Virus record (IMG/VR): IMGVR_UViG_3300028888_000073
Span: 32,001 to 96,000 of that record
Source of the DNA: a virus
Lineage: Duplodnaviria > Caudoviricetes
Length of the DNA stretch: 64,000 nt
Direction: 5' to 3' (one strand)
The notes below the pieces were generated by a model. It was not told where the DNA came from and made no database searches. It saw only the letters and a list, made by a program, of their open reading frames with translations. Positions 31,622 through 49,746 of this stretch are shown here, piece by piece. A program made the translations under genes and the position numbers. Each line of letters begins with the position of its first letter. The stretch's first letter is position 1.

Positions 31622-32002
31622 TTAGTTTGGGGGAGTATCATCATTTTGTTCAAGATCACCAGTTCCATATATATTTAAGAAATGTGCAAACGGTAGCGGA
31701 TCATCTACAACATGCTGAAGGAAATACTGTAATACCCACTGCGCTTGCAATGCACCACCAATATCACCCTCACAGTCAATGTCACCTCTAAAGAACCAAC
31801 CGTCATCTGTTGTTTTGTATTCTGTTGATGATCTTACAAAATCTATCAATTCATCAATGTTATCGTATCCACCAATAACAATAGCTTCTAGGAATACGGA
31901 AAGTAGAATCTGACCATCAAGTGCCTTAATTTCTCCATCACCATCAACGTCACCTAAAATGCTATACCCGTTGACAACATCAAATCTATATTCACTGCTC
32001 AT
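31622..32002 (-). CDS. Stand-alone dockerin-like protein
   Basis: GDVDGDGEIKALDGQILL and GDIDCEGDIGGALQAQWVLQYF, duplicated Ca-binding loop-helix. Confidence 0.75.
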   Translation of the reverse strand: MSSEYRFDVVNGYSILGDVDGDGEIKALDGQILLSVFLEAIVIGGYDNIDELIDFVRSSTEYKTTDDGWFFRGDIDCEGDIGGALQAQWVLQYFLQHVVDDPLPFAHFLNIYGTGDLEQNDDTPPN

Positions 32003-32167
32003 ACATAACACCTCAATCTTTATATATTGTATAGTATAATGTAGTCAAGTTTTACTGTTTTTGAGATAAAAAATCTTTTCTTATCACATATCATCATTCG
32101 CACATATAGCAAAAAAATACACACGCCGAATAATAGCGTGTGCATCTTGATATTTATTTTGTTAAAT

Positions 32168-43843: not shown

Positions 43844-44868
43844 TTCTTCTCTCCCTTTTTCAAAGATTCTTTGTGGAAATGTATGTCAACCTCATCATGA
43901 CAATCTGTACATAATACAATACCTATATCATTATTGTTATGATACTCAACTACACGCTCTTCTAATATGTTGTACTCATCTGATCTAAATTGTAAGTTAT
44001 GTATGTCAATGTTTAATTCATGTGCAATGTTTTCAACTATCTCCGAAAATGACTCTTTGTGGTGAATATGAAGAGTTCCGCCAATTTTACCACACCTAGT
44101 ACACGTATAATTTGCATCAGATAGCATTTTCTTTCTCCACGGCTTCAAAGAAATCCTAATATAATTTTTTATTGATCTGGATGTACCGCCCTTCCAGTTT
44201 TTTCTATCACTTCCTCTTTTGTAGGTAAGTTCACCGGACGCTACACGGGCTTTTATTGTTTCTTTCATTTTCTTAACAGTTTCACTATTTCGCATTGGGT
44301 TATTTGCTTTCATCCTCTCGGATGTCGCCGTTCTAAATTCAGCCATTCGTTCTTCTCTGTGTGAATCTTTATATAACTTATCTTCTTGTTCAATTCTCTT
44401 TTTCTCCGTGTATTCTTCATCAGTTAGTGATACACCAAAATAAGAAGGATTATTTAATTTCATCCTGTGCGAGAACTCTAACCATGTATTGCGCTTACAA
44501 TCCTCACATGTCGTTTCCTTAGATTCGTATAATGGCGACTTGCTTATATTTTTTATACGTGTGCCTAAAACTTTACCACACTTCCTACACACTATCTTCT
44601 GCTCGAATTTCTTAAAGTTATAGTGTTTAGGTCTTACACAATCCGGACACTTTTCCTTACTTTGTTTATCAGTTGCATAGTATGTTTTTCCACATTCTAT
44701 ACAAACACACTCTTTACGTCTTACAGAATATCTGTATTTATTGTACTTATCTCTGCACTCTTTTTCATTACAAACTATTACTCTATGATCTCTTGGAATA
44801 AAATCTTTTCCACAAAATTTACATTTTATTGGAAACTTTTCTTTAGGCTTTGTCATATAGGTCATCAT
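43840..44868 (-). CDS. Free-standing HNH homing endonuclease with Zn fingers and NUMOD-like segments
   Basis: CTRCG..LHIHH...GIVLCTDCH; SERMKANNPM; NWKGG; likely start 44856. Confidence 0.88.
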   Translation of the reverse strand: MMTYMTKPKEKFPIKCKFCGKDFIPRDHRVIVCNEKECRDKYNKYRYSVRRKECVCIECGKTYYATDKQSKEKCPDCVRPKHYNFKKFEQKIVCRKCGKVLGTRIKNISKSPLYESKETTCEDCKRNTWLEFSHRMKLNNPSYFGVSLTDEEYTEKKRIEQEDKLYKDSHREERMAEFRTATSERMKANNPMRNSETVKKMKETIKARVASGELTYKRGSDRKNWKGGTSRSIKNYIRISLKPWRKKMLSDANYTCTRCGKIGGTLHIHHKESFSEIVENIAHELNIDIHNLQFRSDEYNILEERVVEYHNNNDIGIVLCTDCHDEVDIHFHKESLKKGEKK

Positions 44869-45292
44869 CTTCTTTCAGGTCACATGCGCTTACCCAACCA
44901 CGATTTGTTGTATAAAATTTATGGTTCGGTGTGCAATTAATTATTTTTCCGTTTTCAAGCGTTATGTGAATAATTTCTCCGGTATGCCAGTGTTTATACA
45001 TATTAGTAACAGTAGAATTTGTGATTGTGTTCGATTTGTCATCAAACGCTATCACATTATCTCCAATAGAAATTTTTTCAATTGCGGTTTCTCCGTTATT
45101 TGTAGAAACCATAGTTCCGTCAACAAAACAAAATTTACAGTTCATATCGCATTTGTTAGTTACCTTAACGTCTATGCTCTCTGCAAAAGCCGGAATCATC
45201 TTACCATCTTTGCATGACCTGATCTTAGTTCCATCACTAAGCATAGCAACATTATAATTTCCGTTTGTATATACACCAATTACTGATCTCAT
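44843..45292 (-). CDS. Radical SAM N-extein (54 aa) + split intein N-fragment (95 aa)
   Basis: TNKCDMNCKF|CFVDGTMV (block A)...CTPNHKF (block B TxxH)...GWVSACDL. Confidence 0.92.
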   Translation of the reverse strand: MRSVIGVYTNGNYNVAMLSDGTKIRSCKDGKMIPAFAESIDVKVTNKCDMNCKFCFVDGTMVSTNNGETAIEKISIGDNVIAFDDKSNTITNSTVTNMYKHWHTGEIIHITLENGKIINCTPNHKFYTTNRGWVSACDLKEDDDLYDKA

Positions 45293-46649: not shown

Positions 46650-47039
46650 TTACCTCGCTTTAATAATAATTTTATTAATGATCTTCGATTGCAGGACATC
46701 TCTAATAGCATCTTCACACTCATATGTTTCATGTGTCAGCATAATTTTATATACTTCTAATGCAATGTCAACTACGTAACCAATAGTAGTTATATTCATT
46801 TCAGTGTCGAAAACAACCTCTGCATCATCGCCGCTATCAACAACGATAAGTTTTCCGTTAAGAGTAGAGTCGTTCGGATGCATCAAACTTTTCAGCGTAA
46901 TAGTATAGTCATTCTTGTTAATAGATTCAACAATGATATCTGCAATGTCATTTTTAATAGTCGTGATTTTGGATTTAAGGTTATCCATTCTCTGATCCAT
47001 GATCATAAGTTTTGTATTCAGCGAACTATTCATAATCAT
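46650..47039 (-). CDS. Hypothetical protein
   Basis: GAGGT RBS. Confidence 0.6.
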   Translation of the reverse strand: MIMNSSLNTKLMIMDQRMDNLKSKITTIKNDIADIIVESINKNDYTITLKSLMHPNDSTLNGKLIVVDSGDDAEVVFDTEMNITTIGYVVDIALEVYKIMLTHETYECEDAIRDVLQSKIINKIIIKAR

Positions 47040-47042
47040 ACC

Positions 47043-47315
47043 TCACATTCTAAAACGTGGTCGGAAGTATTCGATAATGTCAATCTCTTTACCGTCTTTA
47101 TAGAATGTAAAATTTACAGAGTTGAAAGTACGATTTTCATCTTCAAGGTAAATTTCAGTGCTGAATCCACCGATCTCAATCTTCGTCACACGGTATTCAT
47201 GTTCACTGTCAACTTCCAGACCGATTGAATTTGTAAATTTCTTCAAACCATTATCCGGATTAGTCATCTTAGCAGTAATGTTCTCATCTGTAATATCGCC
47301 ATAAAACAGAGTCAT
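47043..47315 (-). CDS. Hypothetical early protein
   Basis: GAGGTG RBS after a promoter. Confidence 0.65.
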   Translation of the reverse strand: MTLFYGDITDENITAKMTNPDNGLKKFTNSIGLEVDSEHEYRVTKIEIGGFSTEIYLEDENRTFNSVNFTFYKDGKEIDIIEYFRPRFRM

Positions 47316-47369
47316 TAATAAACACCTCACTTCATATTGGAAACATTATGCCGTTCCCTTTGTAAATAT

Positions 47370-47398
47370 AGTATAGCACATTTCAAGGAAATTGTCAA
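47370..47398 (-). promoter_or_regulatory. sigma-A-type promoter
   Basis: TTGACA-17-TATACT. Confidence 0.85.
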
Positions 47399-47482
47399 GT
47401 AGTTTTTAGAAAAATATGCACAGAAATATTAACAACATTTTACGTTAATTTCTGTGCATATTTACTTATTGTAATCAATTAT

Positions 47483-47788
47483 TTAAGTTTCTTTATTGGA
47501 AATAAAGTCCTTATATCCGGATACATCATTGCTGTTATTCTCTACAAGAGATTCAGCATAATATGATAGAAGCATCTGAGCATCAAGTGCTGTAATTTTT
47601 CCGTCACTGTCATGATCAAGTGCTTGATACGTTTCAAGTTCACCATGTAGATTGTTAATCTGTCCTTCAAGGTCGTGGATATACTGCCATATTTCTGGTT
47701 CAAGTGCGGTAACAGTTTCAGTATTAAAAGTTAGACAATTAACACTAATAATAGCAGAGCATACAAAAGCGAAAAACTTCTTTTTCAT
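47483..47788 (-). CDS. Secreted protein with coiled coil and a single dockerin repeat
   Basis: MKKKFF signal peptide ending VTA; DHDSDGKITALDAQMLLSYYA. Confidence 0.75.
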   Translation of the reverse strand: MKKKFFAFVCSAIISVNCLTFNTETVTALEPEIWQYIHDLEGQINNLHGELETYQALDHDSDGKITALDAQMLLSYYAESLVENNSNDVSGYKDFISNKET

Positions 47789-47805
47789 TTTGTTACACCT
47801 CTATG

Positions 47806-48693
47806 TTAAAATGTAAAATTAACTGCATCATCTCTGTTAATGAAGAAGTGAATACCTCTTGCACATTCTTCAAATCTATTCTCACAGAAATTAGGTTCAG
47901 TTACGATCTGCCATTTCCGATATTTGAATTTAGAATCCCACATACTTTCAACAACCTTATCAACAGAGTTCCCGTCAAGGTCTTGAATATCTTCAACATA
48001 TGCCTTGTCAGCGCGACACTTACTCCTACCTGCATTTGACCGCCGTGCATCTTCCGGAATCCTAAGTTTTACAATATAATACTCATCATCATCACATTTA
48101 TCATGACTGATCTTAGCTTTTTTCCATCCAATAAAACTACCTGTATCCGGAACATGGCTTGAAACATTTAGATTTGTCTCAACAAAAGCGGCTCTTGTAA
48201 AATCACAATTTTCTTGACAATCTATATCAAACTCACAGTTTGAAAATGTGGAAGACTGGAATGTTGAATTATAGAGTCTGAAATATTCAAAATTCGTATA
48301 TGCACAGTTAATGTTGTTCAAATTTACAAAATCAAACCAACCACAATCAAATTGACAGTATGCAAAATTACTATTATGTAAATCAGTATACGTGAAACTA
48401 GGACTTGTAAATTTACAGTTAGTGAACATCATATAAGACATTCCACACATAATGAATTCACAAGTGTAGAACTCGATGTCCTCAAATTCACGGCTTTCAA
48501 ATACACAGCCCTTGAATGAAATATATTTAAGTTCTTCCGGAAAGACAATATCCGATGGAATGAAATAACCACAAATATAAATTAGTGAATCATTTAATGC
48601 ACCTTCATTATCTTTTATAAGATTATCAAACTCATCCTGTGTTATAGTCTTATATTTTAAGCTAGTTGTGTACTTAGCGTCATCATTGATCAT
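47806..48693 (-). CDS. Pentapeptide-repeat protein with DUF5758-like C-terminal domain
   Basis: xFxxC repeats; GSFIGWKK, IVKLRIPEDA, KCRADKA, CARGIHFF. Confidence 0.85.
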   Translation of the reverse strand: MINDDAKYTTSLKYKTITQDEFDNLIKDNEGALNDSLIYICGYFIPSDIVFPEELKYISFKGCVFESREFEDIEFYTCEFIMCGMSYMMFTNCKFTSPSFTYTDLHNSNFAYCQFDCGWFDFVNLNNINCAYTNFEYFRLYNSTFQSSTFSNCEFDIDCQENCDFTRAAFVETNLNVSSHVPDTGSFIGWKKAKISHDKCDDDEYYIVKLRIPEDARRSNAGRSKCRADKAYVEDIQDLDGNSVDKVVESMWDSKFKYRKWQIVTEPNFCENRFEECARGIHFFINRDDAVNFTF

Positions 48694-48720
48694 ATACAAT
48701 ACCTCCAATTAAAATATAGT

Positions 48721-49746
48721 TCAATATGTCGGTCTAAAAGTCGGCTCGATATCATGAATCGTATCATCATCTTTATATCTACTATTCTTCACTTCATAGC
48801 TATCCAAAATAAACGCTTTTCTGCATCTGATCTTGCCATATCCAACCATAATAATATCATCAAGACAGATTTTTGCAGTTAAGAAAACAGAACTTGCGGC
48901 AGATTCATTTCTTATCCAATAATTAGCGTGTGAGAAATGAAGTCCGCTCGCACACGGCTTATCAGATTCATCACAATCATTAACAACTGCATACTCACCA
49001 ACACAATACTTGAAATTTTTATCATAGAAAGAGGTCATGTCTTTTTGTACTTGTTTATATGCAATTACATAATACTTTCCGTCAGCTTCTTTGAACGGGA
49101 TTAGTCCAGTTTGAAGTCTAATTGATTCAAGAATATCTTTAGACATATCGGTACAGGATAGAACAACTGTTTTTTCTAGTTTTACACATCCTTTAACAAC
49201 GCCGTAAACATCAGATTGGCATATACGGATACAGTCATCACAGTTTCCATCTACCGAAGCATCTTTAATGTCAGAACGAGTAATATACGCATTTGATACA
49301 TCAGACCTAATAATATCAGATGTGTCTATCATACATGTATTTCGTAGATCACTATTACAAATAGCTGAATCTGAAATCGTACCATGACAAATAATTAATG
49401 ATTCTTTTATTGCAGTATCACCTCTAATTGATAGATATCTGTCAAGTTCTGGTGCATCTGTATTGTCAATAGTTGATGATAGTACAACTGCATTACCTAA
49501 AATTACAACTCTTCCAAGTACAACAGAATTTTTATCAATCCAACACCCTTTACCGTCACCAGAATCATGAAGAATATTACCATATTCTACATACCCACCA
49601 AGATCACCCTCATCAACAATTCCTACTCTGGTTGCAAAAGTTTTCTTTGCACGGATTCTGTATACCCGAACACCATGAATAACTTTACTGTCATCCGGAA
49701 GAATCTCATACTTGCTACCATTATAAACAGGAACATTATCACTCAT
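48721..49746 (-). CDS. Beta-helix repeat protein with a related C-terminal CxxGLHF domain
   Basis: YRIRA..GDLGGYVE...CWI; AYKQV...SFYD..FKY; CASGLHF; KIRC. Confidence 0.7.
   Translation of the reverse strand: MSDNVPVYNGSKYEILPDDSKVIHGVRVYRIRAKKTFATRVGIVDEGDLGGYVEYGNILHDSGDGKGCWIDKNSVVLGRVVILGNAVVLSSTIDNTDAPELDRYLSIRGDTAIKESLIICHGTISDSAICNSDLRNTCMIDTSDIIRSDVSNAYITRSDIKDASVDGNCDDCIRICQSDVYGVVKGCVKLEKTVVLSCTDMSKDILESIRLQTGLIPFKEADGKYYVIAYKQVQKDMTSFYDKNFKYCVGEYAVVNDCDESDKPCASGLHFSHANYWIRNESAASSVFLTAKICLDDIIMVGYGKIRCRKAFILDSYEVKNSRYKDDDTIHDIEPTFRPTY

Follow-up and report, generated by a model that had tools for sequence, protein, structure and literature searches.

A 101-Residue Single-Repeat Dockerin-Like Protein with a Predicted Coiled Coil from a Rumen Jumbo Phage, and the Mostly Phage-Borne Family from Which It Derives

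Introduction

Dockerins attach proteins to the machinery with which Ruminococcus degrades cellulose. The group-2 dockerins of Ruminococcus flavefaciens (RfDoc2), for which Rincon et al. 2010 (PMC2930009) gave the first list, were described by Duarte et al. 2025 (PMC12270676) as consisting of a single Ca loop, a helix that binds the cohesin and an additional helix at the C-terminus. It was not until 2025 that single-repeat dockerins of this kind were shown to function. The same authors regard the group-2 dockerins, to which five sequences are assigned, all from one bacterium, as the only functional truncations known in nature; some engineered half-dockerins from other species bind too (PMC12270676). 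In the crystal deposited as PDB 9GVB, two RfDoc2 copies occupy one ScaE cohesin in an antiparallel arrangement, contact each other extensively and imitate a full dockerin, the affinity of RfDoc2 for the cell-anchoring ScaE cohesin corresponding to a Ka of 6.9e7 M-1 (PMC12270676). Complexes with the ScaE cohesin have been reported for DocScaH, for the group-2 Doc and for the CttA XDoc (PMC12270676).

The gene described here, P0002, was found in a window of 64,000 nucleotides, i.e., the whole stretch of phage DNA that was analysed, and encodes a protein of 101 residues which belongs, through its C-terminal module, to a family of longer and mostly phage-borne proteins. Similarly to RfDoc2, P0002 possesses a single Ca loop, a helix (in P0002 presumed to contact the cohesin), a loop and an extra C-terminal helix, and is devoid of a second repeat. 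Some members of the family are very close to RfDoc2 across the 41 aligned residues, including the Gly-Arg pair at loop positions 10/11. In contrast, P0002 carries no cargo and exhibits Ala67-Leu68 at positions 10/11 instead of the Gly-Arg of the ScaE binders, and the Phe clasp which precedes the loop in RfDoc2 is replaced by Ala56-Leu57. The segment and the carrier in front of the module differ as well: in R. flavefaciens FD-1, RfDoc2 is preceded by a Thr-rich linker within an open frame of about 1000 aa, whereas in the phage family it is preceded by a heptad helix within carriers of about 300-400 aa, mostly encoded by phage-like contigs.

The group-4 dockerins, e.g., DocScaH (8AJY) and the CttA X-dockerin (4IU2), include the protein best matched by the family profile (E 3.9e-11 and 5e-7, respectively), and their C-terminal half, helix 4 included, can be aligned to the part of P0002 formed by loop, helix and tail. 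However, they contain two repeats per chain, whereas the phage module associates one repeat with a zipper. With respect to the canonical type I dockerin (PF00404), P0002 shares the pattern of Ca ligands and passes the cut-off, but it matches the second-repeat half alone and the tandem duplication that defines the group is absent. Finally, the heptad a/d core is shared with the parallel dimeric zippers of the bZIP/GCN4 type, an Asn occurring in the core of 94 of the 121 family members considered; unlike these zippers, the helix of P0002 is predicted to be extracellular, is short (three heptads) and has Ile in place of this Asn. An Asn at a central a/d core position favours parallel dimers.

The Gene and Its Conservation

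P0002 is carried by an IMG/VR virus record of 117,949 bp from a sheep gut metagenome, with a CheckV completeness of 52%. A full phage genome of about 225 kb would fit this estimate, and contigs of 218-228 kb carry relatives of the P0002 family; the phage is a rumen jumbo phage. Metagenome runs covering small shares of the stretch were not counted as evidence of habitat unless their contigs had been placed on it. The gene and its expression signals, all on the minus strand, are the following:

47483..47788, minus strand: gene P0002 (101 codons and a stop), encoding a predicted secreted coiled coil and single-repeat dockerin (ORF list, translation, homologues)
47796..47802, minus strand: Shine-Dalgarno AGAGGTG, 7 nt 5' of the ATG (read from the sequence)
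47412..47463, minus strand: terminator-like hairpin 3' of the stop codon, with a U-rich stretch after it (folding)

The hairpin has a dG of -22.6 and a z of -5.2, and none of the shuffled sequences folded as well. The open frame of P0002 is separated by 17 nt from the stop of the upstream gene (47806-47808) and, owing to this proximity, both genes are probably co-transcribed. In the RNA run X18, exact contigs occur at 46947-47192 and 48030-48180 and none lies over P0002, from which neither expression nor silence follows.

Five further clusters of proteins, each of 101 aa, are 79-96% identical to P0002, and syntenic relatives with about 90% identity are found in contigs from three other gut metagenome runs (X2, X3 and X8). 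Since the short form recurs in these five clusters and in syntenic copies from three runs, the open frame cannot be ascribed to chance, and P0002 is confirmed as a real, conserved gene. Depending on the region, the mean pairwise identity of the six short forms amounts to 97% for the loop and the helix that follows it, 88% for the signal peptide and 73% for the heptad helix, which is the most variable part. The 14.4-kb syntenic contig of run X3 agrees with this pattern, the only diverged stretch (47641-47722) corresponding to residues 23-50. Among GenBank phages, no DNA or protein match to P0002 was found; three scans of IMG/VR gave no relative apart from the phage's own record, and a search of genome contigs using the short forms gave no match.

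Structural Organization of the 101-Residue Protein

Five segments succeed each other along the polypeptide chain, the mature form of which is predicted to comprise 73 aa:

47705..47788, minus strand: signal peptide, residues 1-28, with MKKK, a hydrophobic core and V-T-A (composition and alignment to the long relatives)
47618..47689, minus strand: heptad helix, residues 34-57 (a/d pattern, AlphaFold helix, alignment of the short forms)
47582..47617, minus strand: Ca loop, residues 58-69, with Ala-Leu at positions 10/11 (Pfam, alignment of the short forms)
47540..47581, minus strand: dockerin-type helix after the loop, residues 70-83, presumed to contact the cohesin (Pfam, AlphaFold, structure comparison)
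47501..47521, minus strand: short C-terminal helix, residues 90-96, comparable to "helix 4" of the R. flavefaciens group-2/4 dockerins (AlphaFold, profiles, PMC12270676)

A preliminary description of this DNA had proposed a Sec signal peptide, a short heptad segment and a single dockerin repeat for this protein, and all three are recovered by the present analysis. Judged from its composition, the N-terminus has the features expected from a Sec/SPase I signal peptide, i.e., a basic n-region, a hydrophobic core of about 15 residues (F5-L19, with Kyte-Doolittle values up to 2.5 in 11-aa windows) and small residues at -3 and -1, the V-T-A triplet occupying positions -3 to -1 before L29. In the alignment with the longer relatives, the predicted cleavage site coincides with their conserved "A|KVIEPE" position. 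A lipoprotein signal was considered and rejected, no lipobox occurring before Cys10 or Cys18.

Within the heptad helix, six of the seven a/d positions are hydrophobic (I37, L40, I44, L47, L51 and Y54), and the heptad score was matched by 288 of 10,000 shuffled sequences. Read from the sequence, the a/d core extends over three heptads, which is the minimum for a dimeric coiled coil (at least three) and makes a short zipper. The AlphaFold model of P0002, run on the six short forms alone, contains helices 31-54, 67-83 and 90-96 with a low-confidence pLDDT of 45, and was accordingly used for secondary structure alone. In the Ca loop, which follows the pattern D58-x-D60-x-D62-G63-x-I65-T66-x-x-D69, the ligands at N, N+2, N+4, N+6 and N+11 are provided by D58, D60, D62, the backbone of K64 and D69, and they are invariant across all six short forms.

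Origin by In-Frame Deletion

In an exhaustive profile-free search, several larger proteins matched the whole mature P0002 at their C-terminus. A further search, directed at longer proteins, gave five of 396-406 aa, which match P0002 by both their first 33 and their last ~67 residues with 64-79% identity, the signal peptides taken separately being 73-79% identical. Residues 1-33 of P0002 correspond to residues 1-33 of the long forms P0008 and P0084-P0087, and residues 35-101 to about residues 330-400, the two segments meeting at the following position:

47687..47689, minus strand: deletion junction, codon W34 (tblastn: aa 1-33 and aa 35-101 adjoin it in frame on either side)

Because both segments are contiguous and in frame, with one codon (W34) between them, P0002 equals the long form minus about 300 codons. 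On these alignments, the deletion has removed the whole N-terminal beta-rich domain and has spared the putative export signal and the docking module. As the long architecture is both the more widespread and the more diverse, a deletion is the parsimonious direction of the change. In a tree of the module, short and long forms are gathered in one clade (support 95/96), and a single change of form is compatible with 97% of the bootstrap trees; the grouping of the short forms fits one old event followed by retention. This origin, which the preliminary description had missed, shifts the question to the role of a copy deprived of its cargo.

The Parent Family

A profile built from the long forms retrieved at least 171 clusters at a threshold of E<=1e-3. 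They come from ruminant-gut metagenomes, many of them from contigs of 110-228 kb, and from a few Ruminococcus genomes; most of the clusters are nameless, and a few correspond to hypothetical proteins of Ruminococcus sp. XPD3002, of a Ruminococcus MAG and of Oscillospiraceae MAGs. Two metagenome contigs bearing a member resemble phage DNA and have 3-5 genes in common with the present phage. A full-length member occurs in two of the 101 genomes sampled from the genus Ruminococcus. Taken together, the sequences point to a large, undescribed and mostly phage-borne family in which a predicted coiled coil is combined with a single-repeat dockerin.

The plan common to the 125 aligned members consists of a signal peptide, a beta-rich frame, a heptad stretch, a Ca loop, a dockerin-type helix and a short tail helix. 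Exactly one Ca-loop pattern, located at the C-terminal end and preceded by heptad sequence, is found in 118 of the 125 members. A conserved stretch, "LLSGNIVAEP.LTEQEKYIK.LE.EN..LK", leads into the heptad sequence, which varies in length; over the 24 residues before the loop, hydrophobic residues fill on average 70% of the a/d positions. The Asn of the LE.xN motif (94/121 members) is the central heptad core residue which is replaced in P0002, and the weak PDB matches of the helix are to dimeric coiled coils. Positions 10/11 of the loop vary widely, Gly-Arg being found in 14 of the 121 members.

The N-terminal domain is made of a conserved beta frame (residues ~30-90 and ~260-315) surrounding a hypervariable middle of 100-200 residues, and in the model of P0084 these regions display pLDDT values of 70-89 and below 50, respectively. 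A comparison by VIA matched this domain to no known fold and gave weak beta-sandwich, adhesin and pore-toxin-like rows with Z below 4.1. The alternation of a constant frame and a hypervariable middle recalls proteins under diversifying selection.

The genome of Ruminococcus sp. XPD3002 contains both a family member and seven cohesin matches above the Pfam cut-off. At L006:1607-2973, the member directly follows an open frame with a canonical two-repeat dockerin at its end; the repeats of this dockerin resemble in sequence the single repeat of the member, and both genes adjoin a transposase gene and small regulator-type genes (XRE-like and nucleotidyltransferase/HEPN-like). On a related phage-like contig, the family gene is immediately preceded by an ORF (L005:9138-9998) that resembles GIY-YIG nucleases and combines a hydrophobic segment at its N-terminus with a long helical region.

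Relationship with Dockerins and EF-Hands

The Pfam model Dockerin_1 (PF00404) recognizes P0002 with 30.4 bits for a cut-off of 22.9 (E 4.4e-7), the best stretch being the second repeat of the model and comprising a canonical Ca loop and its helix, whereas the EF-hand models PF13405 and PF13202 reach 13.6 and 11.6 bits, below their cut-offs of 25 and 25.9. No second Ca loop was found in P0002, and the tandem repeat of the type I dockerins is accordingly lacking. The heptad segment was examined as a degenerate first Ca loop and this candidate was rejected, as three of the six short forms have Arg instead of Gly42 and no pattern of ligands occurs.

Compared with solved dockerins, neither P0002 alone nor the profile of the six short forms gave a significant match (E 0.12 or worse), and among all solved structures the calmodulin EF-hands rank first for both queries, likewise without significance (E above 0.1). 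No PHROGs family was found for P0002, and the ESM Atlas gave no more than leads to dockerin clusters, all of them below 0.9. Since P0002 alone gives no significant match, its link to the group-2/4 dockerins runs via the family profile, which in the PDB retrieves DocScaH (8AJY) and the CttA XDoc (4IU2) with the E-values given above and the group-2 Doc (9GVB) with E 4.7e-8. In addition, the second half of a two-repeat bacterial dockerin with a C-terminal helix aligns to the loop, helix and tail of P0002.

At the structural level, the AlphaFold module of the long form consists of a helix, the loop and two further helices (H362-376 and H384-394), with pLDDT values of 71-83. Its superposition by VIA on chain 9gvb_C covers 43 of 45 residues (2.4 A, 30% identity, Z 4.0); this Z falls inside the noise range stated by the tool for small helical pieces and is not decisive. 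Foldseek, run with the long-form model against PDB and BFVD, gave nothing at E<=0.001.

Other Dockerin-Like Genes of the Phage

Three dockerin-like genes are present in the 118-kb record, in agreement with the set of such genes that the preliminary description had supposed. Apart from P0002, these are:

31622..32011, minus strand: second dockerin-like gene, 129 aa, without signal peptide, beside tail genes (BLASTP, module HMM)
G000 112234-112992 = L002:1438-2196, minus strand: third dockerin-like gene, encoding a predicted secreted 252-aa paralogue, located outside the window (homology)

The likeness of the A-L-D residues of P0002 to those of the 31622 protein, already pointed out in that description, is part of a BLASTP match of 38% identity over 42 aa (E 3e-8). 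The 31622 protein contains two half-dockerin-like units in one chain, the second with a degenerate loop; the module HMM matches aa 16-64 with E 4.6e-7 and aa 64-103 weakly. It could represent a virion-associated dockerin-like protein. The heptad helix of the 252-aa paralogue is short; it is associated with an unrelated N-domain and with a single Ca loop, which has Ser-Val at positions 10/11. The paralogue is 34% identical to P0002 over 61 aa, the heptad helices being weakly alike.

A cohesin encoded by the phage itself was considered as a partner and rejected, the search of the record, about 52% complete, having given no match to the cohesin model PF00963.

Possible Mode of Action

P0002 may be regarded as a Ruminococcus single-repeat dockerin of the group-2/4 type with a zipper placed in front of it, so that two pre-paired halves would fill one host cohesin, a reading which, from the sequences compared here, is about evenly balanced between true and false. 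The mechanism would proceed as follows. P0002 would be exported by Sec from an infected Ruminococcus-like cell, cleaved after Ala28 and loaded with Ca2+. The heptad helices would then pair two chains, the partner being either a second copy of P0002 or a full-length member of the family, e.g., the 252-aa paralogue. The two half-dockerins would finally lie next to each other on the face with which a single host cohesin receives dockerins, like RfDoc2 on CohScaE in 9GVB. By analogy, the likely target would be a cell-surface anchoring cohesin of the ScaE type, this class being put forward because all three dockerins matched by the family profile have been reported in ScaE complexes. However, Ala-Leu stands in P0002 where these binders carry Gly-Arg, and with positions 10/11 so variable in the family its specificity may differ.

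The idea that two single-repeat units mimic a two-repeat dockerin on a cohesin had been advanced in the preliminary description. It is supported by the RfDoc2/9GVB precedent and by the architecture of the family, which is homologous to the group-2 dockerins and in which one loop preceded by heptad-like sequence is the rule (118/125). The symmetry axis of a zipper would run along its helices and, if the zipper stood at approximately a right angle to the post-loop helices, as in an EF-hand, this axis would relate two antiparallel post-loop helices to each other; such a geometry, which we infer by reasoning and not by computation, would agree with the arrangement of the two RfDoc2 copies. Depending on the chains that associate, a pair of full-length members would bring two cargo domains to one cohesin, a pair of P0002 would bring none and act as a plug, and a mixed pair would act as a cap. 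Since P0002 is devoid of cargo, its net effect would therefore be either the occupation of cohesin sites or the capping of a cargo-bearing partner. Several observations speak against the reading as a whole: P0002 alone matches no solved dockerin significantly, its recognition and clasp residues differ from those of RfDoc2, its zipper is short and devoid of the core Asn of most family members, the Z of the superposition lies within noise, no cohesin was found in the record, about 52% complete, and no transcript contig of X18 covers the gene.

A more complete scenario, which we consider improbable as a whole, can be built upon this. The phage would secrete a cargo-less and pre-paired half-dockerin that competes for the ScaE-type cohesin of Ruminococcus, thereby displacing a cellulosomal or cellulose-binding protein, so that the cells are loosened from the fibre, or masking a phage receptor and resulting in superinfection exclusion. 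Full-length members, with their hypervariable middle, would rely on this anchor as well to present phage proteins on the surface of the host, and both together would rewire the assembly of the cellulosome.

Three other explanations have to be weighed against the pre-paired half-dockerin. P0002 might never act alone and might always cap a full-length partner, such as the 252-aa paralogue or a form of about 400 aa encoded by the missing half of the genome; each cohesin would then receive one cargo domain and one blank, which would set the valency or stabilize the half-dockerin of the partner. The phage does encode a second putatively secreted protein with the same association of helix and single-repeat module, the two dockerin copies of 9GVB are in extensive contact, and the helices of the short and ~400-aa forms could pair because their signal peptides and modules are near-identical. 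The weak likeness of the heptad helices of P0002 and the 252-aa paralogue (34% over 61 aa) speaks against this particular pair, and obligate hetero-pairing appears rather unlikely. The dockerin likeness might otherwise be a matter of ancestry, P0002 having lost cohesin binding and become a Ca2+-dependent module that associates with itself or with another partner from the cell surface or the phage. The entering helix, the loop and the exiting helix compose a complete EF-hand layout, calmodulin EF-hands rank as high as dockerins among the non-significant matches of P0002 and of the short-form profile, the recognition positions differ from those of the known ScaE binders, and no cohesin occurs in the phage record, about 52% complete. 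However, Dockerin_1 scores above its cut-off and the EF-hand models below theirs, the family profile reaches Ruminococcus dockerins with E 1e-8 to 1e-11, and the helix that succeeds the loop, like the additional one at the C-terminus, is typical of dockerins; moreover, the variation at positions 10/11 resembles that of dockerin specificity groups, Gly-Arg included in 14 members. A loss of cohesin binding is judged improbable.

Another explanation holds that the in-frame deletion wrecked the parent gene and that P0002 is a functionless remnant whose open frame has yet to decay. The only large domain of the parent is indeed missing from P0002, and no transcript contig covers the gene in the one RNA run. 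Nevertheless, six variants diverging down to 79% identity have all retained the length of 101 codons and the signal peptide, with a Ca loop and a helix that do not vary, the gene retains an intact ribosome-binding site and terminator of its own, syntenic copies exist in other metagenome runs, and the clustering of the short forms fits one old event followed by retention. A remnant is accordingly improbable, and the pre-paired half-dockerin is preferred.

Significance

A half-module so far assigned to a handful of sequences from one bacterium now extends to at least 171 protein clusters, mostly from phage-like contigs of the ruminant gut, together with a heptad helix that could potentially join the halves. 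Should both pairing and cohesin binding prove true, the coiled coil would represent a natural solution to the stability of a half-dockerin, of use for designer cellulosomes, and rumen jumbo phages would place their own proteins on the fibre-degrading scaffold of their host, or block it. In the literature, no paper was found on rumen jumbo phages loading or blocking this scaffold. Under the same proviso, both the zipper and the scaffold ideas could be tested most simply with the 101-aa form, deprived as it is of cargo.

Neighbouring Genes

The window is densely packed with ORFs of the minus strand, among which an endolysin, a NAD-dependent DNA ligase, an exonuclease and a Hoc-like large protein are annotated. 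Two genes located 5' of P0002 and belonging to the same probable operon, 47806-48708 and 48721-49746 (minus strand), both encode DUF5758 proteins without signal peptides, the nearer one (47806-48708) also containing pentapeptide repeats (E 2.4e-26 and 2.5e-11). On the other side, just past the terminator hairpin, a near-consensus promoter of the sigma-70 type (TTGACA, 17 nt, TG-TATACT) is found at 47370-47398 on the minus strand and is predicted to drive the 95-aa gene at 47043-47330, homologues of which adjoin members of the P0002 family in contigs L004 and L005. Further along, a 149-aa ORF of the minus strand (44843-45292) ends with a Hint/intein domain (PT-HINT, E 1.6e-13).
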